NCBI GenBank assembly: GCA_963666345.1
Contig: OY762721.1
Coordinates: 3,776,001 to 3,840,000 of the forward strand
DNA: 64,000 nucleotides
Direction of reading: 5' to 3'
DNA from: Desulfatiglandales bacterium
Lineage (GTDB): Bacteria > Desulfobacterota > DSM-4660 > Desulfatiglandales > Desulfatiglandaceae
This document shows positions 1,713 through 17,721 of this stretch, one piece after another. The notes beneath the pieces are model-generated. The model had not been told where the DNA came from. It searched no databases and saw only the letters and a list, made by a program, of their open reading frames with translations. The first letter of the stretch is position 1, and the number at the start of each line of letters is the position of its first letter. Both the position numbers and the translations under genes were made by a program.

Positions 1713-1761
1713 GTTCGGCTAAATAATGGATCTGGCCCTGTACAGCAAGTTTGCATATAAG

Positions 1762-2387
1762 ATTTAACAACCACCCCTAAAAGGGGTGGACTAAAAGGTG
1801 ACCCTAAAAGGGTAACATTTACATCCTTATACTAGGCAATTACATGCGCTTATCTTTTTCCAACTGCCATTTGACATACTTTCTGATCTTCTCCTCATCC
1901 AGTCCTATGGTACTGACACAGTATCCCTTCGCCCAAAAATGCCTTCCCCAGTACCGCCTTTTCAACTCCAGATGCCTATCAAAGATCTTTATGGCGCATT
2001 TGCCTTTCAAAAAACCTGTTACTTCCGAAACCGATAACTTCGGTGGTATTGATATCACAAGATGCACATGGTCTTTCTGGACATTCATTTCCAGAATTTC
2101 AAGCTTCTTCCATTCGCACAGCTGCTTTATAATTTCACAGACTGATTTTCTTACTGCACCTTTCAGAATCCTGAATCGATATTTCGGGCACCAAACTATG
2201 TGGTATTTGCAATCCCAGATCGCATGTGCTAATTTTCTAAAATCATTCATTGAATACCTCCTTTTATCTTCAGGGTCACCTACCCCGATATTATGGAGGT
2301 ATTCTTTTTTTGTCACCACCACGCTACCCGCTTAGCATAGCTGGGACCCACCAGTAAAACTGGTGGATTAAGGGGTTATTTAACAAC
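1762..2387 (-). mobile_element. IS200/IS605-family element (tnpA only)
   Basis: Y1 transposase with subterminal hairpins CCACCCCT-AAA-AGGGGTGG (~1771-1788) and CCACCAGT-AAA-ACTGGTGG (~2348-2366). Leader inverted repeat GAATACCTCC/GGAGGTATTC (~2252-2304) covers the RBS. Confidence 0.85.
1840..2250 (-). CDS. tnpA: IS200 HuH/Y1 transposase
   Basis: 'CKYHIVWCPKYR', HuH 'DHVHL', 'FWAKGYCVST', 'IRKYV..Q'. ATG at 2250 is preceded by GGAGG. Confidence 0.93.
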   Translation of the reverse strand: MNDFRKLAHAIWDCKYHIVWCPKYRFRILKGAVRKSVCEIIKQLCEWKKLEILEMNVQKDHVHLVISIPPKLSVSEVTGFLKGKCAIKIFDRHLELKRRYWGRHFWAKGYCVSTIGLDEEKIRKYVKWQLEKDKRM

Positions 2388-2443
2388 TTACTCCGGTACG
2401 CAACCACAGCACAAATAGACTAAATGACATTCAAGAGGGCCTA

Positions 2444-4021
2444 ATGCCACTTCAACTTTTTGACCTACTGAGCAAGGGTTACTTCCCGAAAGAATTACCG
2501 CCGCCATTCACAACAGAAACCTACGCTCAGGCTCTAGCTGGTCCACAGGCTACCCCGCCTCCTGGCAGTTTTTCTTCTCGCCCGTGGTTCTCTATGTCAT
2601 GTACCCATAATCTTGTTAGAACAGGAGGACTTCGCAGGAACCTCAGCATTCCGAACCCAAAGCATTACTTCCGTTTGGCTGAACACATAGTCGCGAATTG
2701 GGCCAATATGACAACGCTTACGAATGCAACGCCCTTTTCGTTCAGCAAACCTGTTGATATCCATCTTGGCAGATCTATATCTCCTGAACATCGTTTAGCC
2801 GAGAGAGCTGCCTCACGAGTCCATCTTAGATCAACGGGTCGTATTCTTTTAAAGGCAGATATAACAAGATTCTTCCCATCTGTTTACACTCATGCGATTC
2901 CATGGGCCATTATGGGAAAGACCGCGGCAAAAAATGCTCATGCGGCTGGAACGTTGAAAGGTTCTTGGGAAGATAGGGTGGACCTCTTGTCCCGGTCATT
3001 GAATAGTAATCAAACAGTAGGCATTCCTATTGGCCCTGACACATCACTACTCATCGCAGAGGTACTACTCGCACGAATTGATTTAGAACTCAGCCAGAAA
3101 TTTCCCAATCTCAAGTGTTTAAGATATATCGATGACTACGAGTTTGTCTTTACAACAAGATCAGAGGCAGAGGAAGTACTTGGATACTTACAATTTCTGC
3201 TTAATAACTTCGAATTTGCGATTAATCCTAATAAAACTTTTATCATTGAATTGCCTGGGCCTCTAGAGAGTATATGGACTACTAATCTAAGATATTTCAT
3301 CTTCCGCGATGCTGGAGTAACAGGGCAACAGAACGATTTAGTGGCATTTTTCGACACAGCCTTTGAATTGTTCAAAAGGTATCGGGAAGAAGGTCTCATG
3401 AAATATGCAGTTGCTTGCCTGAGGGGGTTAAATGTCCAAGAAGAGAACTGGGAACTTCTTGAAGGTCTCTTGATGCATTGCATATCGATTGAGCCTGCTT
3501 GCCTCCCACAAGTATGCGATCAGGTTGTTTACTACCTTTCTTTGGGTTACCCGGTGAAGACAGACCTTTGGTCTGTTTGTCTAAATAATATTGTAATAGA
3601 AAAGACTCCATTGGGGCAAGCTAGTGAAGTCGCGTGGGCTATGTGGCTCATGAAAATTCTTGATATAAATCTTCAGGATAAATGTTCACAGGCGGTAGGT
3701 GATAGCGAAGACTCTGTCGTTGGGCTAATGGCACTTGGTCTGGCTACAGCTGGATTAGCAAGCATGGCAAATCTGGCCGGGCTTCATCGTTACTCTCAGC
3801 ATAATTTTCTGTTTGAGTCCCAATGGCTTCTTTGCTACCAAGGCAATCTAATGACGTGCCTTGGTCCTGGAGGTGGTCCAGTTAATCTCCAAACCGACTC
3901 GGCCTTCTCATACATGGAGGCTCAGGGAGTTTCATTTTTTGATATCAACGTTCCTGTGCCACCAGCAATTCGGTACGCGGTTCCTCCCGCCTATGGTGGA
4001 GGTGGCGGCGGTGGTTATTAA
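2444..4021 (+). CDS. Abi/UG (DRT-like) reverse transcriptase with C-terminal helical region, 525 aa
   Basis: RT motifs 'RRNLSIPNP', 'ADITRFFPSVYTHAIPWA', 'GIPIGPDTS', catalytic 'RYIDDY', 'INPNKT'; N-terminal 'GYFPKELPPPFT'; no retron VTG motif. Confidence 0.88.
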   Translation: MPLQLFDLLSKGYFPKELPPPFTTETYAQALAGPQATPPPGSFSSRPWFSMSCTHNLVRTGGLRRNLSIPNPKHYFRLAEHIVANWANMTTLTNATPFSFSKPVDIHLGRSISPEHRLAERAASRVHLRSTGRILLKADITRFFPSVYTHAIPWAIMGKTAAKNAHAAGTLKGSWEDRVDLLSRSLNSNQTVGIPIGPDTSLLIAEVLLARIDLELSQKFPNLKCLRYIDDYEFVFTTRSEAEEVLGYLQFLLNNFEFAINPNKTFIIELPGPLESIWTTNLRYFIFRDAGVTGQQNDLVAFFDTAFELFKRYREEGLMKYAVACLRGLNVQEENWELLEGLLMHCISIEPACLPQVCDQVVYYLSLGYPVKTDLWSVCLNNIVIEKTPLGQASEVAWAMWLMKILDINLQDKCSQAVGDSEDSVVGLMALGLATAGLASMANLAGLHRYSQHNFLFESQWLLCYQGNLMTCLGPGGGPVNLQTDSAFSYMEAQGVSFFDINVPVPPAIRYAVPPAYGGGGGGGY

Positions 4022-4107
4022 GACGGTCTAATGATGTCTCCAATAGATAAAGGGAGATTCTGTCCGTGATTTACATTCTACCCTCTGAAATGTTTATCAG
4101 CGAAATC

Positions 4108-4168
4108 GTCGAACCAGCGGATCATGATCGGCTCGCTAATCGCTCGCGACTTATCCGGATCGTTAGCT
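4108..4168 (+). other. attC site
   Basis: GTCGAAC-CAGC-GGATCA...TTATCC-GGATC-GTTAGCT; 61-bp imperfect inverted repeat directly after the RT gene. Confidence 0.8.
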
Positions 4169-4271
4169 ATGACCTATGTTGAACAGTTACTGAAAGGCGA
4201 AAGATGACAACTGGATGCCGGAAAGTGTAGTATTGTGGATAGATTTTCTTTGAATTGTAAAGTGGGGCGAA

Positions 4272-6059
4272 ATGTACAGTAGCAATTCGGCAACTGCGCA
4301 GACTATCTATGGGCATATGGACGTAGCGGCATTCCTTCGTGCCTATCAGATGCGTACGAGCAGCGTTATGTGGCTTCTAGGCGCTGGCGCCTCCCGTTCC
4401 GGCGGCATCAAGACTGCCGGTGACATGATCTGGGACTTCAAACAGAACCTCTACCGCTCGCACAAGAAGCTCCCGCCCAATGCGATTACCGACCTGGGTG
4501 ACCCGGCCGTTCAGCGCAAGCTTCAGCGGTATTTCGATGAGCTTCCGGAATTTCCAGCAGGCGGAGCACCTGACGAGTACGCGCAGTACTTCGAGGCCAC
4601 TTATCCGCATGCCAATGACCGGCGGGCGTATCTCGACAAGCTCATCAGGCTCGGTAAGCCGTCCTACGGGCATTTATCGCTCGCCTTGTTGATGCGCGAA
4701 GGGTGTTGTCGCATAGTCTGGACGACCAATTTCGACCGAACAGTGGAGGATGCGGCCGCCAAGATCTACGGGACAACGAACGACCTCGTGGTGGCGGACC
4801 TTGGTGAGCCGAAAAAGGTCGCCGATGCGCTCAATGCCAAGCGCTTTCCGATCTATGGCAAACTGCACGGCGACTATCATTCCGTCGCCCTCAAAAACAC
4901 GGACGAAGAGCTCAGAGAGCAAGACGCCGAGATGTGCCGCGCGTTTTTTCAAGCGTGCAAGACGAATGGGCTGGCAGTGGTTGGCTACAGCGGTCGGGAT
5001 GCCTCCGTCATGGAAACCCTGAGGGAGGCGTTGGACGATGGGCGGGGATTCCCGAATGGGCTGTTCTGGTTTAAGCGGTCCGGTGAAGAGCCCTTCGAGG
5101 CAGTGACGGAGTTGATCACAGAGGCGCGTCGCCTGCGGGTGGACGCCCATCTTATCGACAACGAGACTTTTGACGAGCTTCTGTCTGACCTTGTTCGGTT
5201 TTTGCCTGAAACCTCTGGCAAGCTCGGGGATATTGAAGGGGCCAAGCCACCGCGCCTTGGTAGTGCACCGCTGAAGGCACCAGGTGCAACGACCCCCTCA
5301 ATCCGGACCAATGCGTTGCCGATCATCTCGCACCCTGTTATGTGTCAGCTGATCGACTGCGACATCGGGGGTTGGGCGGAGATACAGGGAGCAATCGAGA
5401 CGGCTGGCGTTGATATCGTTGCCAGGCGGATTAAGGACGGCGTTATCGCTTTCGGGCGAGATCCGGATATCCGGGCAGCCTTTAATGCATTCGGCATTAA
5501 AAGGTTCGAGACACGTTCCATTCCCGATAAGAACCTCTCCTACGAGAGCGAGGAACGCCGCCTCATCCGGGATGCGCTTGTGCGTGCCCTGAGCAGTCGG
5601 CCGGGCATCGAGATCATACGCCGTGGGTGGCATGTTCTCGCGCTTCCAAACATGCAAACCGTGAAGCCGGGCCACTTTCAGTTTAATACCATCAAGCCCG
5701 TTGATAGTCTCACCGGCACGGTAGGGAAAACAGGCATTCGCTGGACTGAGTGCTGCGAACTACGTCTTGACTACAAGCTTGACCGGTTATGGCTCCTTAT
5801 GGAACCGCGCATCCACCGCGATATTCCGGTAGAGGCCACCTCAGCGCAGATCGACGAGTCCAAGGAATTTGTGCGTTCGAGGTTGGCGGGTCGCTTTAAC
5901 CCAAAGGCCAACGCCATGCTGAGCGGGTGGGCTAGCCTTCTTCTCGGGACAGACCGAAACGTCCGATCCGTCACGCTACGTAGCTTCGGCATATCCGACG
6001 GCATTGATGCGACCTTCGAGGTGTCGTCGATCACAGGATTTAGCGGGGTGAGCCGATGA
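4272..6059 (+). CDS. SIR2-APAZ NADase effector (short pAgo partner)
   Basis: SIR2 motifs 'LLGAGAS', 'WTTNFD', 'KLHGD', 'VVGYSGRD'; long C-terminal region; stop overlaps the pAgo start (ATGA). The start may be ATG 4317. Confidence 0.9.
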   Translation: MYSSNSATAQTIYGHMDVAAFLRAYQMRTSSVMWLLGAGASRSGGIKTAGDMIWDFKQNLYRSHKKLPPNAITDLGDPAVQRKLQRYFDELPEFPAGGAPDEYAQYFEATYPHANDRRAYLDKLIRLGKPSYGHLSLALLMREGCCRIVWTTNFDRTVEDAAAKIYGTTNDLVVADLGEPKKVADALNAKRFPIYGKLHGDYHSVALKNTDEELREQDAEMCRAFFQACKTNGLAVVGYSGRDASVMETLREALDDGRGFPNGLFWFKRSGEEPFEAVTELITEARRLRVDAHLIDNETFDELLSDLVRFLPETSGKLGDIEGAKPPRLGSAPLKAPGATTPSIRTNALPIISHPVMCQLIDCDIGGWAEIQGAIETAGVDIVARRIKDGVIAFGRDPDIRAAFNAFGIKRFETRSIPDKNLSYESEERRLIRDALVRALSSRPGIEIIRRGWHVLALPNMQTVKPGHFQFNTIKPVDSLTGTVGKTGIRWTECCELRLDYKLDRLWLLMEPRIHRDIPVEATSAQIDESKEFVRSRLAGRFNPKANAMLSGWASLLLGTDRNVRSVTLRSFGISDGIDATFEVSSITGFSGVSR

Positions 6060-7486
6060 CAGCATCCCCTCAGCCATTTCAACTGCCCGGCTATTCTGTC
6101 CTGACGGAACAGGAGCTACGCTTTGGAGCGGCGGACCCAAAGGCCGTGGATGCGCATCCGCTGCGAGGGTTGCTTCGGTTTGGCCCGTATTCCCGCGATA
6201 AGCTTGCGGCGATCGCCGATCCAATCCGAGTCGCCATCATCGCGCCTGCCGGACAGCTTGAACGGGTCAACGGCCTCTTGCGGGAACTTCAGCAATACCA
6301 TCAGCCGCGTGAGCGACGCCAGTACCTGCCGGGCTTTCCGGGCTTCTCAAAGGTTTTTTACGTGAACATGGGGGCCGCAGGCCCGCACGCGAACGTTGAG
6401 CTGCCAGTGGACCTGACAGAGCAGATGAAGCGGGTCGAGAAGCCCCATCTCAAGCTGGCCGAGGCGCTTCAGCATGCGCTCCACGCCCTCCACCATCAGA
6501 GAGATGCCTTCGATGTCGTCTACATCCTACTGGATAAGGCGTGGGAGGCCGGCTTCTTCGGCGGGGAGGGGGATGACTTCAACCTTCATGACTATGTGAA
6601 GGCCATTGCCGCCTTCGAAGGCATCCCTACCCAGTTCCTTAATGAAGATCGTGCGTTGGTGTATCGCTGCCGTGCCAGTGTGATGTGGCGTTTGGGCATC
6701 GCCCTCTATACCAAGGCTGGCGGCGTGCCGTGGGTCTTGGCCAATATCGATCCGGGAACGGCGTATATTGGAATCGACTATGCCCTCCGACCAAATACGG
6801 ACGTGGATTCGCGGTTTGCGATCTGTTGCAGCCAGGTTTTCGACGCTGAAGGCTCGGGCCTGGAGTTTGTCGCCTACGAGGCCAGTGGTGTCCGGATGTT
6901 TGGGAAGAACCCCTTCCTCCACCGGGATCAGATGATGAAGGTGATGTCCCGCAGCCTGGCTGTGTATCAGCGCAAACACGCAGGCGCTGTGCCCTCACGC
7001 ATCGTGGTGCACAAGAACACTGAATTTAAGCCCTACGAGATCGACGGAGTTTTCGACGCCTTCCCGAATACGGAGAACATCGAACTCGTCCACGTACAGC
7101 AGAATAGCGGATGGCGCGGTGTTTACATCACTAAGCCTCAGCAGCCGAATGGCTATCCGTGTTTGCGGGGCAGCACGTTCCAACTTGGCCAGCATACCTC
7201 CTTGCTCTGGACGCAGGGTGACCTGCCGGTCGTGGCTGACGGGAGTTCCTACTTCAAGGAAGGCAAAGGGACGCCTGAGCCTCTTATACTGAACCGACAC
7301 GCCGGCCGTGGTGCGATGGACGACTTGTGCAAAGAGACTCTTGCGCTCACGAAAATGGACTGGAACAACGACAGCCCCTATGACCGCATGCCGGTCACGC
7401 TCAACTTCGCCGGAACGCTTGCCGCTGTGGTCAAGCAGATGCCCAAACTGGAGCCTCGCTCGTACCCAGTGCGCCTGTTTATGTAA
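6056..7486 (+). CDS. Short prokaryotic Argonaute (MID-PIWI)
   Basis: 476 aa; MID 'HDYVKA..GIPTQ..IALYTKAGGVPW'; PIWI 'YIGIDY', 'IVVHKN', 'LTKMDWNN', 'PVTL'; catalytic tetrad incomplete. Confidence 0.93.
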   Translation: MTASPQPFQLPGYSVLTEQELRFGAADPKAVDAHPLRGLLRFGPYSRDKLAAIADPIRVAIIAPAGQLERVNGLLRELQQYHQPRERRQYLPGFPGFSKVFYVNMGAAGPHANVELPVDLTEQMKRVEKPHLKLAEALQHALHALHHQRDAFDVVYILLDKAWEAGFFGGEGDDFNLHDYVKAIAAFEGIPTQFLNEDRALVYRCRASVMWRLGIALYTKAGGVPWVLANIDPGTAYIGIDYALRPNTDVDSRFAICCSQVFDAEGSGLEFVAYEASGVRMFGKNPFLHRDQMMKVMSRSLAVYQRKHAGAVPSRIVVHKNTEFKPYEIDGVFDAFPNTENIELVHVQQNSGWRGVYITKPQQPNGYPCLRGSTFQLGQHTSLLWTQGDLPVVADGSSYFKEGKGTPEPLILNRHAGRGAMDDLCKETLALTKMDWNNDSPYDRMPVTLNFAGTLAAVVKQMPKLEPRSYPVRLFM

Positions 7487-7537
7487 GAGCATATAGAACC
7501 GCGCCAACTCCTATAACACCAGATTAGGTAGCATAGC

Positions 7538-7556
7538 CGCTAACAAATCGGCGGAG
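7538..7556 (+). other. Left half of attC (inverse core CGCTAAC), truncated
   Basis: CGCTAAC-AAATC-GGCGGAG follows pAgo. GCTAAC complements GTTAGC at 4162, which opens this cassette. No right half is visible. Confidence 0.55.
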
Positions 7557-7580
7557 ATACAGAAATTTGTCTGATGGATT

Positions 7581-7908
7581 GGGGGACGGGCCACGATAAT
7601 ATTACGAAATAACTTAGAAAGAAGTCTGAAAAAGAGCAAAGATAGGGCCTATATTGCGATTTTTGATACCGAAAAGGGCATTATAGGTTCTGCGTGATGG
7701 CAAGAGCAAAAAGGCATTTATTGAAAAATTACTTCTGCCTGGAACCGCAATCGACAGAAAGGTAAGACAATCCGGAAATGGCTATGAGTTTGAGGAGCGG
7801 TGAGTCCCTGCATCGTCTGTTTTGGGACGAAAACCGGTGATACAGGCCTCAGAAGGTGCTTTTGGGATGATTATCATGTATAACCAATAAGTTATCATGG
7901 GCTACCCC
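7581..7908 (+). mobile_element. Internally deleted non-autonomous element, copy 1
   Basis: Imperfect terminal IR GGGGACGGGCCACGATAA / TTATCATGGGCTACCCC. Both ends resemble 9581-9684 (29-bp identity, 7855-7883 = 9632-9660). Short ORF remnant MARAKRH at 7697. Confidence 0.6.
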
Positions 7909-7985
7909 AGGCGACAAGCTCCAGGGGATCCAAAGGACCATACCATGATCAAGAAGAAGGCCGGTAAAAAACAGGCGCGCTCATC

Positions 7986-9210
7986 TAGTACCATGTAACA
8001 GTTAAGATTGCGTATTTATGTTTTTATGATATACTAGCGACAACCTTATAGAGGAGGTCGCTATGGCACCAAGATATCGAGTAACGCTGCGCAAACAAGA
8101 GCGCCAAGAGCTTGAAACGATGACGCGCAAGGGGAAAATCGAAGCGAGACGATTCAAAAATGCTCGTGCGTTGCTGCTCTGCGATGCTGGGCCGGAGGGC
8201 CCTGGCTGGAAAGTTGCTGATGTGGCGTCAGCCCTTGGGATGAGCAGACGATCGATCGAGAATCTAAAGAAACGGTTTGTGGAAAAGGGGCTGGAGGCCG
8301 CCCTTGCTCGTAAGAAGCGTGAAAGACCTCCCCGAGAGATCAAGTTCGATGGGGCGTTCGAAGCGAGATTAATCGCGTTGGCCTGTTCGAAAATCCCAGA
8401 TGGATACCGACGCTGGACGGTAAGGCTTTTGGCCGAAAAGGCGGTTGAGCTGAAGTTTGCAGAATCCGTATCGCATATGTCAATACAACGGGTGTTAAAA
8501 AAAACGAACTTCAGCCTCACCGAAGCAAATACTGGAAAATCCCACCGAAAGGCAGCGCCGCGTTCGTAGCGTGCATGGAGGATGTTCTTTGCCTCTATCA
8601 CCTGCCGTACGATCCGGACTACCCAGTGGTATGCATGGATGAGTCCTGCAAACAGATGGTGGGCCAAGTGCGTGAGCCGATTCCGTGTAAGCCGGGGCGC
8701 CCTTTGCGTATGGACGACGAGTATGTCAGAAAAGGTGTGGCGCAAATTTTTATGGAAGTAGAGCCTCTTGCAGGTAGAAGGCATGTGGCGATTGCCGAAC
8801 ATCGCAGGAGGAAGGATTGGGCTGTGCAGATCAAGGCAATGCTTGATGAACGATATCCCAATGCGATCAAGGTGCGTCTGGTTATGGACAATCTCAATAC
8901 CCACAATACCGCCTCACTGTACGAGATGTTTGAAGCCGATGAAGCTAGGCGTTTGGCGCAACGACTGGAGATCCATTATACGCCGAAACACGGCAGTTGG
9001 TTGAACATGGCCGAGATTGAACTCAGTGTTTTGAAAGGCCAATGTCTTAATGACCGGATCCCCGACATGGCGACCATGGAGCGCCAAGTGGTCGCATGGA
9101 AAAAATCCGAAACAACCACGCAAGGAAAATTTTTTGGCAATTTACAACTCCTGATGCGAGGATTAGACTGAAACAGCTCTATCCGCAATTATAAATGTTA
9201 CATAGTACTA
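7986..9210 (+). mobile_element. IS630-family element
   Basis: IRs TAGTACCATGTAACA (7986-8000) / TGTTACATAGTACTA (9196-9210); CTAG context at both ends (TA target). Confidence 0.92.
8063..9171 (+). CDS. IS630 transposase in two ORFs (HTH 8063-8569; DDE to 9171), probably joined by a -1 frameshift at the A8 run near 8497-8504
   Basis: 'RWTVRLLA', 'CMDES', 'VMDNLNTH', 'YTPKHGSWLNMAEIE'; slippery TTAAAAAAAAC. A further frameshift is likely near the 3' end. Confidence 0.88.
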
Positions 9211-9580
9211 GTCGCGTTTCAGACTGCGGGTCGTCGTCGGATTTGCCAAGCCGCTACCCGGAGGTATTTGAATACGTTAAGGATCGCATTCGTGCCGCTC
9301 AGATCAGAGCTTCACTGTCGGTCAATCGGGAACTTATCTCCCTGTACTGGGACATCGGCAAGGCGATCGTCCGGCGACAGGAGATAGAGGGCTGGGGCCG
9401 ATCTGTCGTTGAACGGCTTTCCACAGATATTCAGAAGGAGTTTCCCGGCATTCGTGGGTTCTCGCCGCAAAATCTTTGGCACATGCGATCGCTGTTCCTC
9501 GCTTGGACAAGCGAAGCGGAAAATCTCCAACAAGCTGTTGGAGGAATGGATGGCGATAATTTCCCACAGGCTGTTGGATT

Positions 9581-9684
9581 GGGTCGGGCCGCGATGACAA
9601 TATGAAATAACAAAGAAAGAAGGCCGAAAGGGGTGCTTTTGGGATGATTATCATGTATAATCAGCAAGTTGACTTGGAGACCCC
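9581..9684 (+). mobile_element. MITE-like copy 2 (ends only) of the element at 7581-7908
   Basis: GGGTCGGGCCGCGATGACAATATGAAATAAC..AGAAAGAAG joined directly to GGTGCTTTTGGGATGATTATCATGTATAA..CTTGGAGACCCC. Confidence 0.6.
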
Positions 9685-9699
9685 AAGTGACAACTTTAT

Positions 9700-9835: not shown

Positions 9836-10116
9836 ATGCAAAAGCTGAAAATTGATCAGGACATCAGGCCACTGTCAGAAGTGAGAAATGCCATGGCTTC
9901 CTACATCAAGCAGGTCATGATACTAAGCGTCCGGTAATAATTACGCAGTACGGTAAAGGCGTTGCTGTACTGTTGGGCGCAAATGAATTTGAAGCCATGC
10001 AGGAAAAAATAGAGCTTTTATCAGACGTCCAAACCTCTCTCAACCAACTGGCAAAAGGAGAAGGTATATCCCACCAAAAGGCCAAGGAAAGATTATTGAA
10101 GAGAGTTCCTGAATGA
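9836..10116 (+). pseudogene. Phd/YefM antitoxin with a 1-bp frameshift near 9917
   Basis: MQKLKIDQDIRPLSEVR..KQV then, in another frame, TKRPVIITQYGKGVAVLL..RVPE*. The stop overlaps the toxin ATG. Confidence 0.85.
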
Positions 10117-10409
10117 AAATAGTATGGTCTCCCCATGCTGTTGAAAGGGCATCGGAAATAGTCGATTACATCGCTCAAGATAAACCTTTGGCAGCTGATA
10201 AATGGATTCATACGGTATTTTCAAAAGTTGACCGGCTTCGATCTAATCCGGAAATTGGGCGGATTGTCCCTGAAATCAATGAGCATCAATTCAGGGAGCT
10301 GATTTACGGAAATTATCGAATCATCTATCATATCGAAAAAAAACAAATATCCATACTAACTATCCGACACGGCAAACAGATATTGCCGATAGATGAAATC
10401 AAGGCATAA
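10113..10409 (+). CDS. RelE/ParE family toxin
   Basis: 'MKIVWSPHA..YIAQDKP..NPEIGRIVPE..RELIYGNYRIIYHI..ILTIRHG'. Confidence 0.92.
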   Translation: MKIVWSPHAVERASEIVDYIAQDKPLAADKWIHTVFSKVDRLRSNPEIGRIVPEINEHQFRELIYGNYRIIYHIEKKQISILTIRHGKQILPIDEIKA

Positions 10410-10455
10410 AGATTCACTTACCGTACCGCTCGCCTGATGAATTCAGCCGTTATAT
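10404..10455 (+). other. Degenerate attC site
   Basis: GCATAAA (overlaps the toxin stop; near-complement of GTTATGC at 9754)-GATTCA...TGAATT-CAGCC-GTTATAT. Confidence 0.6.
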
Positions 10456-10629
10456 GGCACAACATAGATTGGATGAGGTGTGTTTGTATTTGACATCCCC
10501 TTTAATGGGCGTCAAGTGACATCGGTTAAGGCCGGCGTTGGCGTACCCATATAATGCCGTGAGGTTTTTTTAAAGGTTGCCTTGAAGTCTTGTTGGTGGT
10601 GCTTATAAAGGTACGCAAGGAGGTACTAT

Positions 10630-10911
10630 ATGGGAAAATTATCAAATATTATTCCGGTGAGCGATTTAAGGCAAAATGCTGCAAATTTATTGAAACAATT
10701 ACAGAACAGCAAAGAGCCTTTGATAATTACACAAAGAGGACGGGCAACAGCGGTAATAATCGGTGTTGATGCCTATGAGAAATCTGAGCGGGAGAAAGAG
10801 CAGTTGCGCCTTTTGGCTAAGGGAGACAGGGAAACCGAAACGGGTCAAGGGTATGATCTGGATACAATTTTTGGTGAAGCCGACGCCCTTTTGGCTAAGG
10901 AGCCTTTGTGA
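10630..10911 (+). CDS. Phd/YefM antitoxin
   Basis: 'IIPVSDLRQNAA..PLIITQRGRATAVII'; RBS GGAGG; overlaps the toxin start (GTGA). Confidence 0.92.
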   Translation: MGKLSNIIPVSDLRQNAANLLKQLQNSKEPLIITQRGRATAVIIGVDAYEKSEREKEQLRLLAKGDRETETGQGYDLDTIFGEADALLAKEPL

Positions 10912-11285
10912 AGGTCAAATTTGCACCCTCTGCAAGGACTCAATTTCTTTCCGCGCTATCTATTCGAAAGGATAAGTCTTCGGCGGCCCTTGACTTTCGT
11001 AATAAAGCTGAAAAAATTCTGCGAGGACTTGAGGATTTTCCTGAATCCGGAAAAATCATACCAGAGTTTCCGGAACTCCCCTATCGAGAAATGATCATAT
11101 CGCCGTATCGATTTTTCTATAAAATCAAAGACGATACCGCCTGGATTGTTGCTGTGTGGCGTGACCCGACCCCAAATGAACAAATGAAACAATTAAACGT
11201 TATTGGTCAGCTACCGGACGTAAACGTCGGTTCGCCGTTTGTGCCAAAATGGCCTCAGTCAAAATCACCATTTATGAGGTCCTAA
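10908..11285 (+). CDS. RelE/ParE toxin with its C-terminus replaced by intron-derived sequence after ~11160
   Basis: 'FPESGKIIPE..YREMIISPYRFFYKI..IVAVW', then an unrelated tail that overlaps the intron ORF remnant. Confidence 0.8.
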   Translation: MKVKFAPSARTQFLSALSIRKDKSSAALDFRNKAEKILRGLEDFPESGKIIPEFPELPYREMIISPYRFFYKIKDDTAWIVAVWRDPTPNEQMKQLNVIGQLPDVNVGSPFVPKWPQSKSPFMRS

Positions 11286-11565
11286 GGTGGCATGCCATTG
11301 GTATCAAAAGATACATCAAGATAAAGGCCGATTCAAACCCTTACTTGCCGGAGTATGCAGGATATTTCTGGTACAGACGGAATAAGAAGGGCAGCAAACT
11401 GTTAGCGGCACTGTCTGCTCGTGAGTCTCGGGCCATGCAGGCCGTTTAGGAGGTTAACAGCCGGGCAACTCCCTAAGGGCTGCCTTTTGAGAGGCTTGAG
11501 CCGTATGATGGGAAACTATCACGTACGGTTCTTAGGCTTACTATTACCCATAAGTCTAGACGATT

Positions 11566-11877
11566 TTATCGCCGAGTTTCTTCCTTAAAAGCCTCAATAT
11601 TTGCCTCAACAAGTTGCTCGATCAGTTTCCTTAGTCGGGCATAATTGGCGATCATCTTTCGCATTCTGGTTAACTGGTCTCTTTTAACATAAACGCTACG
11701 TGTTTTTTGTTGGCTATCCTTATAGGTCAGCCGATATGCCATCCGGGATGACTTTTTTGAGCATATGCATCTCGCTCTGTTGCATGTGGAACAAACGCTT
11801 GTAATCGACCCGCGAACAAATTCAGGGAATTGGGCTAATTTTTTTAAAAGATCATTTCGTTTTTTGACAGGATTCAT
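11566..11877 (-). CDS. Small Cys-containing passenger protein inside the IS (DUF6788-like)
   Basis: 'RGSITSVCSTCNRARCIC..YRLTYKD..KTRSVYV'; RBS GGGAGG before ATG 11877. Confidence 0.65.
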   Translation of the reverse strand: MNPVKKRNDLLKKLAQFPEFVRGSITSVCSTCNRARCICSKKSSRMAYRLTYKDSQQKTRSVYVKRDQLTRMRKMIANYARLRKLIEQLVEANIEAFKEETRR

Positions 11878-11958
11878 CCTTGACACCTCCCTATCGTAAT
11901 AGTAGACGTATATAATACGTCTACTATACAAATGTCAACTTTTAATGGGAGGCGTTCA

Positions 11959-13404
11959 ATGAACCCAAAAAATAGATCAAGTTGGGCGGCGGAAGAGTTT
12001 GCAGAGGTCAAGCTCGGAGATAAAAGACTCGATGCAAGGCTGATTAAGCTGTGTGATAGATTTTCGGATGCTCCAGAGAGCCCCATCAACCAAGCATGCG
12101 TGGATTGGGCAGAGACCAAAGCTGCTTATCGTTTTTTTCAAAACAACAAAGTTGAGGTTGGTAAGATGTTGGCGGCCCACCGATGTAAAACAGCTCAGCG
12201 TACTAAGGAACACAAAACGGTTCTTGCACTCCAAGATACCAGTTATTTTGTCTATACTGACCATCCGAAGACCGAAGGACTCGGGAAGATGTCTTTAAAG
12301 AAGGGTAAAAACGTGAAAAATATCTATTCCAACGGCCTGATAATGCATACATGTCTGGCTGTAACAACTAAAGGCCTCCCACTCGGACTGTTGGATCAAA
12401 AAATATTTTCACGGAAACTCCGGAAAAAGGATAACAAAAAAGCAAAACCTCACGCCAATCTCCCGATAGAGGAAAAGGAAAGCTATAGATGGCTTGAGGC
12501 ATTAGAAAACACTAAGGAATTAACAGGTTGTACCCGAATCGTCACAGTCTGCGATCGAGAAGCCGATCTATACGATTTCTTTATGCGTAGCCATCAAATC
12601 AATGCCCCTGTCCTCGTTCGAGCAAACGTAGATAGGATTATAAATCGTAAATCCCGTTATGCAGAAAAGAATGTCGAAAAACTTTGGGAGAATATGCGAA
12701 AACAGCCTGATTCAGGTTCTTACGTGGTAGAAATCGCGAAAAGGTCTAAGTCGAAGCATGCCAAAGAAAGGGAAGCACGCACCGCGATGGTCTCTGTACG
12801 TTTCGGCTCTTTTACCCTCAATCCTCCCCGCAATAGTATCAGGCACAGCACTGAGAAACTTCCAGACATTGAGATGCACGCAGTCTATGTTATAGAAACA
12901 AATCCGCCTGATAGCGAGGAAGCTATCGAGTGGATGCTCCTGACCAATCTTCCAGTCATGTCGTATGAAGATGCTTATGAAAAAGTTTTGTGGTACTGCT
13001 TACGCTGGCGAATTGAAATGTACTTCAAGGTCTTAAAGTCCGGTTTTAGGGTCGAATCATGTCGGCTAGGGCATGCCGATCGGCTGGCAAAATACCTCAC
13101 AGTTATGAGCATTGTAGCTTGGAGGATCTTCATGATTACCTTGATCGCTCGTACCGATCCGACAACACCCTGCTCAACTTTCCTTACCGATCAGGAGTGG
13201 AAAGCCCTTTTCCTGCATGCAAATATAAACAAACCTATACCGAAAAAGCCACCAACCATTGGTATTGTAGTCATCTGGATTGCAAAACTAGGAGGTCACC
13301 TAGCCCGAAAAAACGATGGGCCTCCTGGTACTATCACATTATGGAGAGGATGGAAGCGTCTTGCAGATCTGAGTGAAGGCTTGAAACTGGCGGATCAGCT
13401 ATGA
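11959..13404 (+). CDS. IS4-family transposase
   Basis: 'LGDKRLDARL', 'LQDTS', 'VCDREAD', YREK 'YCLRWRIEMYFKVLKSG', 'PPGTITLWRGW'. Confidence 0.95.
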   Translation: MNPKNRSSWAAEEFAEVKLGDKRLDARLIKLCDRFSDAPESPINQACVDWAETKAAYRFFQNNKVEVGKMLAAHRCKTAQRTKEHKTVLALQDTSYFVYTDHPKTEGLGKMSLKKGKNVKNIYSNGLIMHTCLAVTTKGLPLGLLDQKIFSRKLRKKDNKKAKPHANLPIEEKESYRWLEALENTKELTGCTRIVTVCDREADLYDFFMRSHQINAPVLVRANVDRIINRKSRYAEKNVEKLWENMRKQPDSGSYVVEIAKRSKSKHAKEREARTAMVSVRFGSFTLNPPRNSIRHSTEKLPDIEMHAVYVIETNPPDSEEAIEWMLLTNLPVMSYEDAYEKVLWYCLRWRIEMYFKVLKSGFRVESCRLGHADRLAKYLTVMSIVAWRIFMITLIARTDPTTPCSTFLTDQEWKALFLHANINKPIPKKPPTIGIVVIWIAKLGGHLARKNDGPPGTITLWRGWKRLADLSEGLKLADQL

Positions 13405-13506
13405 TACTTATGGGTAATAGTAAGGTTCTTAGGGGGGGAGACACCCCTGACCTACCCGGTATGACTACATTTGAGGAGCGTCTTTGATTTACCGAAAGGA
13501 TTGATC

Positions 13507-14367
13507 ATGATGAATATCGCACAACAATTCATGGAAAGCGAAAATACTTTACAAAGAGTTCTTGTAATATTGTTCCTGGCACTTGGATCTCATGGCTTCG
13601 TCTTGATGGTCAAAGCACTATGGAAGCATCTAAAGGGAATCGCCTCTTCCAAGCCTCAATCGAAGTTCAAATCTATTGCAAGCCTGACACAGAGCTTTCT
13701 TATTTTTATACTTTATTTCGGAGCGTTCGGGCTTATTCTTCGCGAGCTGGGTGTCTCTTTAACCGCTTATTTAGCTAGCGCTTCTGTCCTCGGCTTGGCA
13801 ATCGGTTTTGGTTCCCAAGGACTGGTTCAAGACGTTGTAACGGGTTTGACATTGGTTCTGTCAGATTTGATTAAAATTGGGAATATGGTGGAAATCGGGG
13901 GCCAGACAGGAATAATTCGTTCCATTGGAATGCGTTTCATTGTTATCGAGAACGCCCTTGGCGCAGAGGTGTTTATTCCGAATCGAAGCATAATGAATGT
14001 AATTAGTTATTCTTGTGGCTACGTGAGATGTATTGTTGATGTGACACTATCAAATGAGCCTGGATCGAGAGATAAGATAAAGGGATTCATCGAAGAAACC
14101 ACCAACTCTTTTATAAAACAATTCCCGGGCATCCTCATAAAACCAGTCAGTATTGAAGGTGTTATTAAAACTGCTCCTGGAAAAGAAATTTTCCGTATCA
14201 AGTTCAGGATTTGGCCGGGGCGAGGTACCCCTATCGAAACCTCGTTCAGACAGGAATTGATTCAAAGATTAAAAATAGTTGATTCTTCTTATTCCGACTG
14301 GATGGTATCAGTAAATTACGAAGTAGAGAAAGCGCCTTCAAATAATAGCCTGTCATGCGGTAGTTAA
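13507..14367 (+). CDS. Small-conductance mechanosensitive channel family protein
   Basis: TM helices; 'GLAIGFGSQGLVQDVVTG'; 'IPN' motif. Start uncertain (13471-13510). Confidence 0.88.
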   Translation: MMNIAQQFMESENTLQRVLVILFLALGSHGFVLMVKALWKHLKGIASSKPQSKFKSIASLTQSFLIFILYFGAFGLILRELGVSLTAYLASASVLGLAIGFGSQGLVQDVVTGLTLVLSDLIKIGNMVEIGGQTGIIRSIGMRFIVIENALGAEVFIPNRSIMNVISYSCGYVRCIVDVTLSNEPGSRDKIKGFIEETTNSFIKQFPGILIKPVSIEGVIKTAPGKEIFRIKFRIWPGRGTPIETSFRQELIQRLKIVDSSYSDWMVSVNYEVEKAPSNNSLSCGS

Positions 14368-14422
14368 CAATCACTTCACCCGACGCCATAAAGCCTGGCG
14401 CTGGTGAGCTCAAACATTGACT
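14362..14422 (+). other. attC site (core mutated GTT->ATT)
   Basis: AGTTAAC-AATCA-CTTCACC-CGACGCCA..TGGCGCT-GGTGAG-CTCAAAC-ATTGACT; overlaps the MscS stop. Confidence 0.8.
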
Positions 14423-14449
14423 GGTTAAAATTAAAAGGATGAAAGTACT

Positions 14450-16324
14450 ATGGAAACTAATTTAAAAGTGCTTTTTGTTGATGCCGGAACATCGTTTTAT
14501 CGAATCAATCGTTATAAAGTGGGCAATTTTTTCGGACCAGTTGATTTAGGGCTGTATTTATCTGGCAAACACAACAGCTTAAATATCGGGACAGGACTTT
14601 TGGCAGGTTCCATTTTTCCAGGATCAAACCGATTAATCTTCTCCGGCTTTTCTCCCTGCTGGGGCGGATTTTTTATATCCTCGATGGGTGGTGCAGGTTT
14701 GGTTTTTGATAACCTGGGTATTAATATGCTTTCCATTGTGGGTAAGGCTGCCCCTCTCTCTGTTTTATACCTCAACCGAAAACATGGTGAAGAGATTCAA
14801 ATCGAAGTTCGTCCGATAGAAATCCAAAAAGTATGGAATGAAGGGCGAAGAGGGGTATATTCTTTGATGAATCATACTTTTAACCTGTTTGGAGATAGCT
14901 ATAGTAACGATCCCAGGATACTGGCAACAGGTCCGGCATCTCAGGCTACCGATTTCGGGGCAATATGTTCTGTTCCAATTAACAAGGGGGAATTAACCTT
15001 TGTCGATACATGGGCAGGCAGAGGTGGGTTTGGGACTAAACTTTTCAGAGACCATGGTATCGCAGCAATAATTTACGGCGGAACATTTATTGATGAAGAT
15101 TTTCGCGACCGCAAAGTCGCCGACCAATGGTTTATTGATAAATATCAGATGAAAATGTCGGCAAAAGACATGGAGGCTACTGCCAAATATCGTTTCGATC
15201 CCAAGTTTGAAACCGGAGGAACCTTTGGGGCAAATTATGCAAGTTTAGGCGGCAGCATGTTCTCTTTCAATTATAAAAGCGTTTATATGGACGAAAGTGA
15301 GCGATTGGCAATCCATGATAAATTTATCATGAATCACTATCTCAAACAATTTAACGAAGAAACAATTAAACCGAAAAAACAAAAAAATTGCGGCGAACCA
15401 TGTGTTGCGGTCTGCAAAAAAATGCACGGTGAGTTCAAAAAGGATTATGAACCCTATCAGGCAATGGGACCACTAGCAGGAATTTTTGATCAACGTGCCG
15501 CCGAAAAACTAAATCATCATGCTGACATGTATGGTTTTGATGCCATCTCTGCCGGAGGTGTACTTTCCTGGCTCATGGAGTGCTTGTCTGAAAGAAATAT
15601 AACACCCCTGGAATTAGGCATAAAAAATATCCCGGTATTTTCAATTAAAAATTTCGATGAAGTTTCTACTTCAATGTATAACTCAGATATTGGTGTTGCG
15701 CTCCTGGATTCGATTATCGAAAAGCGGGGCATTCTCGATCTTAGCGAAGGAGCACGCAAATTTGCCCGGCGCTTATCGAGACAAAAAGGAAAGAAAATTC
15801 TGGATTCTTTTGTTTATGCTGCCTATGGCCGCAAAGGATGGATGGTGCCGAATCAGTATTGGACGCCGGGGGTGCTTTCTCCTTTGGCTATTATGGGGAA
15901 ATACTACATGTATTATGGACAGGATTTCATTCCTCCCAGGGAATTGGGTAATAGAGGTGCAGCAAGGCTAAGAGGAGAATTAATAATGGATAATCTCGGA
16001 ATATGCCGCTTCCACCGAAACTGGGCAGAAGAAATCATGCCCGAAATAATTGATTCGCTGTATGGGTTAAAACAGCAATTTATAGAAAATAATCATATCA
16101 CAGCCAGCCGGATAAACAGCCGTAACTCATCCGTGTTTTGGGAACCTGACAGAAATATCGATATTGTTTATGCCTTTTTAAAAAGAAAACACATTCTGGA
16201 AAATAACAATGATACTGAACTTATTAAATGGATGAATTATTTTAAAAAAAACAAACATGAAGCTGCCCTGAGTTTCTGGTATGAAATGCACAAAGGGATT
16301 CAGGAATCTCTTAGAGAGTTTTAA
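14450..16324 (+). CDS. Aldehyde:ferredoxin oxidoreductase-like protein
   Basis: 'SSMGG', 'AGRGGFG', 'CGEPCVAVC', 'GFDAISAG', 'DNLGICRF'. Confidence 0.8.
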   Translation: METNLKVLFVDAGTSFYRINRYKVGNFFGPVDLGLYLSGKHNSLNIGTGLLAGSIFPGSNRLIFSGFSPCWGGFFISSMGGAGLVFDNLGINMLSIVGKAAPLSVLYLNRKHGEEIQIEVRPIEIQKVWNEGRRGVYSLMNHTFNLFGDSYSNDPRILATGPASQATDFGAICSVPINKGELTFVDTWAGRGGFGTKLFRDHGIAAIIYGGTFIDEDFRDRKVADQWFIDKYQMKMSAKDMEATAKYRFDPKFETGGTFGANYASLGGSMFSFNYKSVYMDESERLAIHDKFIMNHYLKQFNEETIKPKKQKNCGEPCVAVCKKMHGEFKKDYEPYQAMGPLAGIFDQRAAEKLNHHADMYGFDAISAGGVLSWLMECLSERNITPLELGIKNIPVFSIKNFDEVSTSMYNSDIGVALLDSIIEKRGILDLSEGARKFARRLSRQKGKKILDSFVYAAYGRKGWMVPNQYWTPGVLSPLAIMGKYYMYYGQDFIPPRELGNRGAARLRGELIMDNLGICRFHRNWAEEIMPEIIDSLYGLKQQFIENNHITASRINSRNSSVFWEPDRNIDIVYAFLKRKHILENNNDTELIKWMNYFKKNKHEAALSFWYEMHKGIQESLREF

Positions 16325-16352
16325 TGAACAGAATGTACGAAATATTAGAACC

Positions 16353-16418
16353 ACCTAATCGTTCCACCTGGCATTTTTCCGCTTCACTCCAAAATGCAGG
16401 TGAACTCAAATGTTGAGG
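16353..16418 (+). other. attC site
   Basis: ACCTAAT(C)-GTTCCACCTGGCATTTT...AAAATGCAGGTGAAC-TCAAAT-GTTGAGG; the left core is degenerate. Confidence 0.75.
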
Positions 16419-16429
16419 CTGTCGAAAAA
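16415..16429 (+). repeat. Orphan IS1182-type terminal IR
   Basis: GAGGCTGTCGAAAAA is the exact reverse complement of 1698-1712. It is followed by a very AT-rich tract with no transposase. Confidence 0.7.
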
Positions 16430-16595
16430 GTATTTTTGTATATTTTTATGCCAAAACAATCCTATAAACGCTAAATTATGATAATTAAAATATTTTTATA
16501 AATTTAATGTTATATAATTTTATTATGCAATACATTGCATTGAAAATTAATATCTTATGCTGGATGGGTGGCCCCAAAATGACAAATTTACAAAC

Positions 16596-16644
16596 CGGAT
16601 GGTGTGGGAGGAGGGGAGGTCGTGAGACCCATTCCTATCCCGAT
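16596..16644 (+). mobile_element. Group IIC intron 3'-end remnant
   Basis: GGTGTGGGAGGAGGGGAGGTCGTGAGACCCATTCCTATCCCGAT: end of domain V plus domain VI with the class C-type terminus CTATCCCGAT. Confidence 0.7.
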
Positions 16645-16667
16645 TCGGCTAAAAGAGGAATTAGATA

Positions 16668-17597
16668 GTGAGCGTCGATACAACAATATTTCGGAAAGAT
16701 AGGGGACTGCTAAGCAAGTCAGGTACAATACATTTTGTGGGGCTGGTCGCCTGCCTGGTATTTTTAATTTCAGCCTTTGGATATTCACCGGCAGAAGCGG
16801 AATGGCCCCACATTGCCTTTTCAAAAGATGGTACACTAATCTCATATGAGATCTTCGGCGTAGGAGAACCGACTCTGGTATTTGTACATGGGTGGAGTTG
16901 CGATGCTCGCTACTGGCGCGCCCAGGTGCCAGTATTTTCTAAAAAACATCGTGTTGTCGTTATTGATCTTGCAGGCCACGGCCATTCAGGGATGTCCCGC
17001 GCAAAATATACCATGGGCTCCTTCGGAGAGGATGTTCGGGCAGCAACAGAATCAACGGGCAGTCATAGCGTTATTCTAATAGGTCATTCAATGGGCGGCT
17101 CAGTGATTGCCGAAGCGGCCCGCATAATGCCTGATCGTGTCATCGGATTAATCGGTATAGATACCCTTGAAAACATAGAGTATCCGATGACTCGCGAAGA
17201 ACTCAAAAAGATGATCGCTCCCCTGAAGGAAAATTTTCGAGATGGAAGCAGGCAGTTTGTGAGCGAGATGATAGGACCTAAGACCGATCCGCAGCTCCGC
17301 GAATGGATACTTTCAGATATGTCAGCTGCGCCGCCCAGCGTTGCCATTAGCGCTATGAATGAAATGATGACTCAATACATCACCGGTGAAGCGGCAAAGG
17401 TATTTAAACAAATCCGAATTCCAGTTATAACCGTAAATGGAGGCCTTTGGCCCATCAACTATGAAGCAAACCGTCGGCATATGTTTTCTTTCAATGCTAT
17501 TGTTCTTGAGGAAGCGGATCATTTCTTGATGATGGATCGTGCCATTGATTTCAACAAAGCATTGGAAAAAGCAATCCTTATGCTAACAGGAAAATGA
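16668..17597 (+). CDS. Alpha/beta hydrolase with N-terminal signal/TM segment
   Basis: 'FVHGW', 'DLAGHGHS', nucleophile 'GHSMGG', 'ADHF'. Confidence 0.92.
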   Translation: MSVDTTIFRKDRGLLSKSGTIHFVGLVACLVFLISAFGYSPAEAEWPHIAFSKDGTLISYEIFGVGEPTLVFVHGWSCDARYWRAQVPVFSKKHRVVVIDLAGHGHSGMSRAKYTMGSFGEDVRAATESTGSHSVILIGHSMGGSVIAEAARIMPDRVIGLIGIDTLENIEYPMTREELKKMIAPLKENFRDGSRQFVSEMIGPKTDPQLREWILSDMSAAPPSVAISAMNEMMTQYITGEAAKVFKQIRIPVITVNGGLWPINYEANRRHMFSFNAIVLEEADHFLMMDRAIDFNKALEKAILMLTGK

Positions 17598-17605
17598 TTG
17601 AAGAA

Positions 17606-17721
17606 ACCGAACCAGGGCGTTCAGTGGGTCACAAAAAGCATACGCCCACTGATTCCCAACGTGTATGCCGGGTGGTTTGAAAGAAGGGGAGTCTCGAGGC
17701 TCCTCCCTATCCCGATTAGAA
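17606..17721 (+). other. attC site with its core GT|TAGAA split by an intron remnant
   Basis: ACCGAAC-CAGGG-CGTTCAGTGGG...CCCACTGA-TTCCCAAC-GT[17663-17716]TAGAA. Confidence 0.75.
17663..17716 (+). mobile_element. Group IIC intron 3'-end remnant
   Basis: GTATGCCGGGTGGTTTGAAAGAAGGGGAGTCTCGAGGCTCCTCCCTATCCCGAT. Confidence 0.72.

Follow-up and report, generated by a model that had tools for sequence, protein, structure and literature searches.

The left end of a 64,000-nt stretch of a Desulfatiglandales bacterium genome (hereafter the window, C1:3776001-3840000 of genome G000) raises the question of whether its + strand genes constitute an integron cassette array, and whether the phage-defence genes among them were captured as cassettes. 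An initial annotation had proposed a hidden array acting as a defence island, in which multi-kb defence modules were acquired as cassettes. Analysis of the window and of the 20 kb directly to its left (L011, examined for the head of the array) indicates that window 1-17.8 kb, the cassette-array region, is probably the body of a chromosomal integron cassette array that kept an attI remnant, has no integrase gene of its own and has since decayed. The attI homology, the features of cassette 1, the matches to attC models on the right-hand side and the boundaries of insertion sequences (IS) are direct observations, and the integrase IntI would have acted on this array in trans. According to the list of open reading frames (ORFs) and family scans, the + strand of the first 17.7 kb carries, in order, an IS1182 transposase, a reverse transcriptase (RT), a SIR2-APAZ/prokaryotic Argonaute (pAgo) gene pair, an IS630 transposase, a DUF1016 fragment, two toxin-antitoxin pairs (TA1 and TA2), a group II intron domain 5, an IS4 element, and genes for an MscS channel, an aldehyde:ferredoxin oxidoreductase-family protein (AFOR) and a hydrolase; an IS200/605 TnpA gene lies on the - strand. 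The Mla transporter operon, on the - strand from 17857, lies beyond the right end of the array.

The genome contains a single match above the TIGR02249 cut-off, the intI gene at C1:1359012-1359980 (471.6 bits versus a cut-off of 265), which is an intact 322-aa ORF located 2.4 Mb from the window; the nearest other recombinase match, at 3.871 Mb, is outside the window. A homologue of the attI beside this native intI was identified 1.08 kb left of the window, at L011 ~18840-18921. The two are ~90% identical over ~75 nt, up to the same CACTAG/TT junction (slash marking the junction), with the native attI carrying one additional repeat unit of ~56 nt. On this homology, the head of the window array is assigned an attI. 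The genome profile search found no intI adjoining the remnant, the neighbouring gene being FabH-like and on the - strand, so that a complete integron, with intI adjacent to attI and array, is not what the locus presents. The initial annotation had foreseen intI and attI to the left of the window or else a cluster of attC sites without an integrase (CALIN), and had called for an upstream search for intI; that search recovered the attI remnant and left the gene 2.4 Mb away as the sole intact intI. The features at the array head, apart from attI, are as follows.

L011:19730-19788, + strand: attC1, of the native attC sequence family (21.3 bits, E 1e-4 in 817 nt with model R1, described below)
1-1712, + strand: right-hand 1712 nt of an IS1182-family element 1927 nt long, which starts at L011:19789 (NCBIfam NF033551, Pfam DUF772/DDE_Tnp_1_6)
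1713-1719, + strand: GTTCGGC, the displaced R' core of attC1 and start of slot 2, with GTT on both sides of the IS1182 element

Cassette 1 joins attI at CACTAG/TTGGCC, opens with GTTGGCC and closes with GGCCAAC, a 7/7 match. The GTT of the R' box of attC1 is followed directly by the left inverted repeat of the IS1182-family element (inverted repeats at L011:19789 and 1691-1712; transposase ORFs at 2-940 and 937-1383), and the element ends at 1712 directly before GTTCGGC. Since the IS1182 copy splits the R' box right after GTT, the GTTCGGC at 1713 is the genuine remainder of R', and the GTT flanking the element may represent a target duplication. The assembled contigs of four sequencing runs, including the sediment run X3, were compared with the window and all four carry one additional A after 904 and one additional C after 9915. 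The frameshifts at these positions, in the IS1182 transposase and the TA1 antitoxin respectively, are probably assembly errors, so both genes are probably intact.

The native array (L009, C1:1351340-1358700), whose genes diverge from intI, served as the reference for attC sites. Read by eye, its spacers contain canonical attCs, in which the inverse core ends in AAC, the spacer measures 7 nt, the stem is imperfect, the loop is A-rich and the core is GTT, and the opening core of each native cassette is complementary to its own inverse core at 7/7 or 8/8 positions (for example GTTATGT/ACATAAC, GTTATGA/TCATAAC, GTTAGCCC/GGGCTAAC and GTTAAAT/ATTTAAC). Three covariance models, with roughly calibrated E-values, were built in this analysis from attCs of this genome. 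R1, derived from two native attCs, was too narrow and missed three other native sites. R2, derived from three native attCs and attC1 and thus free of window sites, was run unfiltered over both strands of the window and L011 (84 kb). Its three best non-training matches, 17606-17668, 14362-14422 and 9700-9760, all belong to the + strand, and each immediately follows a gene of that strand; three further matches in the window came next with scores of 10.3-10.6 bits, at 46.7, 47.9 and 62.7 kb. R3 combined the R2 set with one further native site and the two best window sites, and its best new matches were 16353-16418 (12.6 bits, E 1.4) followed by 9700-9760 (12.3 bits, E 1.8). Genome-wide at E <= 1, R3 recovered its seven training sites only, and the attC family, which is common to the native and window arrays, therefore appears confined to these two arrays. 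The supported sites of the window are listed below.

9700-9760, + strand: attC-like site with R'' GGTTAAC and R' GTTATGC, weak when taken alone (R2 13.5 bits, E 1.2; fold -9 kcal/mol, z -0.5)
14362-14430, + strand: attC of the MscS cassette (R2 17.4 bits, E 0.12; bottom-strand fold -10.5 kcal/mol, z -2.26)
16353-16414, + strand: attC-like hairpin ending in GTT, 3' of the AFOR gene (R3 match; 16320-16418 folds with z -2.5)
17606-17668, + strand: attC of the hydrolase cassette, of the native sequence family, with GTG rather than GTT as R' (R2 19.2 bits, E 0.042)

The bottom strand of 14359-14434 forms an R box, an L box, an internal loop and a stem with bulges, and 17602-17669 folds with a native-like stem. 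The architecture of an attC (R'' ending in AAC, R' beginning with GTT, and an imperfect hairpin of ~55-140 nt with bulges) is seen at 14362-14430 and 9700-9760, and at 17606-17668 save for its GTG, but not at 4108-4168, 7538 or 10404-10455. Together with attC1 at L011:19730, the sites at 9700, 14362, 16353 and 17606 make up a series of co-oriented + strand attCs a few kb apart, as judged by the models built here. A genome-wide nhmmer search with a four-sequence seed reported window 17610-17661 at E 5.3 only. A plain scan for AAC...GTT hairpins was discarded as too unspecific, and MAFFT alignments of the attCs were structurally unusable. Rfam scans of the window returned only a tRNA and the group II intron domain 5 and no attC-type family, although whether Rfam holds an attC model was not established.

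Hairpins had originally been described after nearly every + strand gene. An attC-like hairpin also matched by a covariance model follows four of the eight non-IS gene units (the DUF1016 fragment, MscS, AFOR and hydrolase); the sites after the RT (z +1.65) and pAgo (z -0.3) do not bear this out, that after TA1 is weak, and the end of TA2 has been replaced. Sites further to the right had been thought more decayed, and the reverse was found, with the right-hand sites the best preserved. GTTCGGC at 1713 and ACCGAAC at 17606 do belong to real attCs, namely the attC1 split by IS1182 and the best R2 match.

Several results weigh against reading the region as a cassette array. The E-values of the window sites are marginal (0.042-1.8) and roughly calibrated, the natives-only model R1 matches the window at E ~9 only and leaves 17606 unreported, and R3 is narrow, as its genome-wide return of training sites shows. 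A generic score combining a hairpin with R boxes was calibrated on 764 gene 3' flanks and gave P values of ~0.005-0.03 for native sites, 0.043 for the hydrolase, 0.052 for the DUF1016 fragment, 0.084 for AFOR, 0.106 for MscS, 0.245 for the RT, 0.325 for pAgo and 0.44 for TA1. The good window sites thus fall only within the top 4-11% of ordinary flanks, a poor separation that arises because terminators score well too. Folding and targeted R3 searches revealed no recognisable attC behind the RT, SIR2-pAgo or TA1, and tblastn found no IntI in 80 loci of pAgo relatives and five of RT relatives, where one locus (L034) gave a match to a generic recombinase at 25% identity. R3 likewise had no match in any of these 85 loci, a weak negative given how narrow the model is. 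The case for attCs in the window rests on rank, strand and position of the matches together with the evidence from attI and cassette 1. If there were no integron here, the hairpins would be transcription terminators and the core motifs chance, in keeping with a generic score that fails to set the sites apart from ordinary 3' flanks (P 0.04-0.44) and with non-significant 7-mer matches. Such an explanation is highly improbable in view of the attI homology, the 7/7 core match of cassette 1, the 21.3 bits of attC1 with the natives-only model, and the location of all top model matches in the array and on the cassette strand.

Both large defence modules lie between the R' remainder at 1713 and the attC-like site at 9700.

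2444-4021, + strand: defence-type RT, DRT6/DRT4-like UG RT (PADLOC Drt6 486.5 bits over residues 5-505, Drt4 460.5 bits)
4272-7486, + strand: SIR2-APAZ gene (4272-6059) and short pAgo gene (6056-7486) (PADLOC Aga_SIR2-PNTD1-PNTD2 572 bits, pAgo_I 618.4 bits)

The full-length profile match predicts the RT to be a DRT defence-type reverse transcriptase; its subtype may be Drt6 or Drt4, the NCBIfam Drt4 equivalog scoring 250.9 bits, under its cut-off of 450. The SIR2-APAZ gene and the short PIWI-MID pAgo gene share a 4-nt overlap and, from their domain content, are classed as a SPARSA-type pair. As had been noted earlier, base composition changes sharply here, with a G+C content (GC) of 0.56-0.61 across SIR2-pAgo versus 0.40-0.49 in its neighbours. 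Within the order, pAgo occurs in seven of 209 genomes, this one included, with 42% identity for the top relative in that set. The closest pAgo overall is from an alphaproteobacterium (93% protein and 78% DNA identity), with homology in the coding sequence only, and the flanks of the relatives are uninformative for that reason; no attC was seen by eye beside the six best pAgo relatives. The sole close match to the RT is a contig 100% identical to the window across 2286-6518.

The initial annotation had bounded the RT, SIR2-pAgo and TA1 by the following candidate sites, none of which gained support.

4108-4168, + strand: candidate attC behind the RT, at most a decayed remnant (fold -6.7 kcal/mol, z +1.65)
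7538-7544, + strand: candidate inverse core CGCTAAC after pAgo (no hairpin at 7534-7600, z -0.3)
10404-10455, + strand: candidate attC after TA1, GCATAAA...GTTATAT (top-strand fold -4 kcal/mol, z +0.25)

The argument had been built on the complementarity between the opening core and the closing inverse core of each cassette. The motifs were confirmed at their positions (GTTCGGC 1713, GTCGAAC 4108, GTTAGCT 4162, CGCTAAC 7538, GTTATGC 9754, GCATAAA 10404, TCGGC 16645 and ACCGAAC 17606). The pairs of the five window cassettes each match at 6/7 positions, and a match of 6/7 or better was obtained by shuffling with P 0.12 for the RT, 0.22 for SIR2-pAgo, 0.16 for TA1, 0.41 for AFOR and 0.22 for the hydrolase (20,000 shuffles of each 145-nt 3' flank). 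The 7-mer complementarity in the window, taken alone, is therefore no more than chance. At the candidate RT site (4104-4172), 192 of 200 shuffles folded as well or better. Targeted R3 searches covered spacers of 261-281 nt. In the 281-nt RT-SIR2 spacer the best match fell exactly on 4108-4168 with only the R boxes aligned (5.2 bits, E 0.6); after pAgo, 7538-7584 was returned (2.5 bits, E 3.5); at 10404 no + strand match was obtained. Sharing of 9-mers with native attCs had P 0.2 for the RT spacer and 0.06 for pAgo relative to random genome segments. A visual impression of arms common to the RT spacer and native attCs was dropped, as 9-mer sharing was seen in 20% of random genome segments. The attC bounds proposed for the RT and SIR2-pAgo accordingly fail folding, targeted covariance search, 7-mer statistics and shared k-mers alike.

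How the two modules entered the array can be weighed against this background. In its full form the original proposal holds that the RT and the 3.4-kb SIR2-pAgo pair were each captured by IntI, with 4108-4168 and 7538 as mutated or truncated attCs. Both modules lie between a verified R' (1713) and the attC-like site at 9700, in cassette orientation and with short leaders, the RT beginning ~105 nt from R' once the IS200/605 element is removed. Inverse cores matching at 6/7 stand 86 nt (RT) and 52 nt (pAgo) past the stop codons, the best R3 match in the RT-SIR2 spacer coincides with the candidate site, and a repeat starting 31 nt beyond the pAgo core could have removed its attC. Two native cassettes of ~4 kb, each with a single gene (1256 and 1270 aa), make multi-kb cassettes plausible in this organism. 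Set against these points are an RT site that folds worse than its shuffles and a pAgo site with no hairpin, E-values of 0.6 and 3.5 even in searches of 281 nt, 7-mer matches at chance level with four GTTs in the RT-SIR2 spacer to choose a core from, 9-mer sharing not above chance, and the lack of a nearby attC or IntI beside the closest pAgo relatives. Double capture with these very sites is therefore conceivable and somewhat doubtful. Taken one at a time, and with the attC having decayed later, entry as a cassette appears rather probable for the RT and falls just short of an even chance for SIR2-pAgo.

The defence block, comprising the RT, SIR2-pAgo, IS630 and the DUF1016 fragment, may instead have entered an existing array without IntI, through rearrangement at IS or repetitive extragenic palindrome (REP) elements or by homologous recombination. 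No attC was found across 1720-9700, this stretch is rich in IS and REP elements, and the GC jump and the alphaproteobacterial pAgo relatives fit foreign DNA. The sequence TTCGGCTAAA occurs at both 1714 and 16645, so that the block 1713-16644 was possibly placed or duplicated as a unit. The orientation of the genes and the short leader after R' fit a cassette, no transposon ends flank the block, and the two IS1182 pieces are only 81.6% alike; entry without IntI is a tentative alternative. The two 10-mers (1714-1723 and 16645-16654) are identical, lie 14.9 kb from each other and stand at the head of the RT slot and of the hydrolase cassette; they could reflect block insertion, gene conversion or IS1182 right-end sequence. 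As regards the acquisition of the defence modules as cassettes, the array itself held up, while arrival of the RT and SIR2-pAgo by this route was not demonstrated.

Under the preferred reading of a decayed chromosomal cassette array, cassettes would have entered at attI and been reshuffled through attC x attI or attC x attC recombination. Such exchange would require IntI in trans, a possible source being the intact intI 2.4 Mb away, which has its own attI and array. The RT would have come to occupy slot 2 and SIR2-APAZ/pAgo slot 3, both in cassette orientation, followed by two Phd/ParE pairs and three non-defence cassettes. The array has since decayed and been colonised by IS1182, IS200/605, IS630 and IS4 elements, by remnants of REP elements and of REP-associated tyrosine transposases (RAYT), and by 3' fragments of group II introns, with IS1182-family elements landing at the GTT of two R' sites. 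Among 105 genomes of the family, the gene flanking the array on the left is present in 100 and that on the right in 59, and the two were never near each other among the places listed; the genus consists of this genome only. The mobile elements other than the full IS1182 copy are listed here.

1759-2386, - strand: IS200/IS605 element in the leader of slot 2 (TnpA 1840-2322; NF033573, 150.6 bits)
7575-7917, + strand: repeat resembling REP elements or miniature inverted-repeat transposable elements (MITE) (7575-7720) and RAYT-like stretch (7711-7917), from sequence similarity within the genome
8063-9171, + strand: IS630-family transposase in two ORFs (NF033545, DDE_3); element ~7990-9190, ends approximate
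11496-11541, + strand: group II intron domain 5 (Rfam RF00029, 50 bits)
11537-13424, + strand: IS4-family element (transposase 11932-13404) with 19-nt perfect inverted repeats and a 9-bp duplication (11528-11536/13425-13433)
16415-16535, + strand: second IS1182-family element, a 125-nt left-end fragment directly after an attC GTT (81.6% identity to the left end of the full copy, with an inverted-repeat match)
16590-16644, + strand: structured repeat of ~60 nt, copy 1, ending where the hydrolase cassette starts (repeat comparison)
17658-17716, + strand: structured repeat of ~60 nt, copy 2, at the end of the array (repeat comparison)

The IS200/605 element has five further copies in the genome (99.5-100% identity) and the IS4 element two (100% identical), while the REP/MITE repeat has at least 10 related copies, two of them inside the native array. 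The stretch 7711-7917 resembles native-integron DNA in and next to a broken gene, which was taken as RAYT-like by eye from ORF translations. The 3' end of the group II intron resumes past IS4 at ~13425-13462. A contig of run X3 joins 11526 to 13424, corresponding to the empty site of IS4, and intron domain 5 thus runs on into domain 6. A 66-aa ORF at 11249-11446 had no Pfam match, and an intron-maturase remnant there is unproven.

The ~60-nt repeat exists in four genome copies only, two in the window and two in an array near 3.10 Mb, each followed by a T and then unrelated sequence, so that the repeat stops at the start of a cassette. One copy lies ~400 nt downstream of a group II intron D1-D4 match, with an IS4 fragment between them, and on that basis the repeat is probably the 3' end of a group II intron. 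Read in this way, the hydrolase cassette opens with GT/TCGGC, which is complementary to ACCGAAC at 6/7 positions. The GT had originally been placed ahead of the TCGGC at 16645, where the preceding letters are in fact AT. Contigs of runs X2 and X3 join 17718 to 9764 and to 7642, and the 17718 to 9764 joint also occurs in X7 at a depth of 3.9. In these joints the ~60-nt repeat ends against either a TA1-like leader or the REP repeat, with matching sides of only 34-56 nt; they could represent another cassette order in related strains, or another copy. They were not counted as excision circles, given their short sides and the possibility of other copies or strains.

Both IS1182-family insertions are located directly after the GTT of an attC R' box and in sense orientation, in what amount to only two events, and the pieces may represent a new attC-homing IS group. 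In the region of the native integron, a strongly self-complementary, GC-rich element of ~175 nt was observed that has five genome copies (one at C1:3098500). Four of the five occupy exactly the position between G and TT, one in the native attI and the others in three native attCs, with no break in any R' core or in the 7/7 or 8/8 complementarity of the cassettes, and an Rfam search at this element gave no match at E <= 0.1. A combined reading, in which the RT and the two-gene 3.4-kb SIR2-APAZ/pAgo module were both captured as cassettes in a marine-sediment bacterium and the R' crossover of attC and attI is also a homing site shared by three types of element not described as attC-targeting, is unlikely. 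The three would be the IS1182-family IS, a sense-oriented lineage of group II introns and the 175-nt GC-rich element.

Further cassette-like sequence was observed elsewhere in the genome. A third cassette region spans C1:3095000-3116000 (L010 and L012). Besides attCs of canonical appearance (such as 3103507-3103562), it includes a 32-residue C-terminal fragment of IntI (3097163-3097258), a TA cassette of the Phd type, copies of IS200/605 and IS4, the ~60-nt repeat in two copies and group II intron D1-D4 (3101840-3102224). A solitary attC of the native sequence family is present at C1:1425510-1425574 (nhmmer E 0.01), far from any intI. In the native integron, the C-terminal part encoded by the 1270-aa cassette gene (L009:5292-9104, - strand) weakly matches the anti-phage protein Upx (31 bits versus a cut-off of 1900), and this integron may hold large defence cassettes too.

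The remaining cargo of the window array consists of the following genes.

9195-9605, + strand: N-terminal fragment of a DUF1016/PDC-S02 gene (Pfam DUF1016_N 88.6 bits, PADLOC PDC-S02)
9836-10409, + strand: TA1, Phd/YefM antitoxin (9836-10116) and ParE toxin (10113-10409) (Pfam PhdYeFM 39 bits, ParE_toxin 69.5 bits)
10630-11285, + strand: TA2, Phd antitoxin (10630-10911) and ParE-like toxin (10908-11285) (Pfam)
13471-14367, + strand: MscS-type channel gene (Pfam MS_channel_2nd)
14450-16324, + strand: aldehyde:ferredoxin oxidoreductase-family gene (Pfam AFOR_N/AFOR_C)
16668-17597, + strand: alpha/beta hydrolase gene (Pfam)

The 39-bit PhdYeFM match corresponds to the frame of the TA1 antitoxin downstream of the 9915 frameshift. 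The C-terminus of the TA2 toxin is aberrant, the ParE profile stopping at residue 85 of 125, and the 3' end of TA2 has been replaced by the intron fragment and IS4. By eye, the leader of the hydrolase gene and that of a native cassette share a 14-mer with a ribosome-binding site. The description of the array as a defence island holds for the two phage-defence modules inside it and not for the half of the cargo (MscS, AFOR-like and hydrolase) that is not defence-related.

The window array appears to show a chromosomal cassette array in the course of ageing, with its integrase lost, its attI kept, its defence and TA genes retained, and insertion sequences and introns eroding it by landing at the point of recombination. 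Repeated insertion exactly at the GTT of R' offers a testable lead on new attC-homing elements. Should the RT and pAgo modules prove to be cassettes, the known range of sizes and types among integron-borne defence systems would become wider, which the present evidence does not establish.

Integrase-less chromosomal cassette arrays and defence cassettes in integrons are both already known kinds. The array resembles sedentary chromosomal integrons and CALINs, the latter a term in current use (PMC7923331), in its co-oriented, promoterless genes separated by attCs, its TA cassettes, and the presence elsewhere in the genome of a complete integron that could supply IntI. Unlike these, it keeps an attI remnant yet no intI, many of its sites are decayed or split by mobile elements, and about half of its length is without a recognisable attC. 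Phage-defence cassettes in integrons (BRiCs) have been published, and that account refers to Darracq et al. for the Vibrio cholerae superintegron and states that cassette-borne defence systems have homologues outside integrons without attC (bioRxiv 10.1101/2024.07.02.601719). Like the BRiCs as described there, the defence genes of the window occupy cassette slots; unlike them, no attC could be demonstrated for its two large systems, the DRT-type RT and SIR2-APAZ/pAgo. A literature search on integron-borne Argonaute returned no report of a pAgo cassette, judging by titles and the openings of abstracts. Group IIC-attC introns and IS1111-attC elements are reported to enter attC near its 5' end, in the bottom strand and thus antisense to the cassettes (PMC3001079). 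The mobile elements of the window likewise sit at attC sites within cassette arrays, whereas, relative to that description, its IS1182-family copies and intron 3' remnants are sense-oriented and at the R' end. As in defence islands, transposases accompany a cluster of DRT, SPARSA, TA pairs and a PDC-S02 fragment; what distinguishes this locus from such islands is that its scaffold is an integron array, the right third of which carries non-defence cargo.

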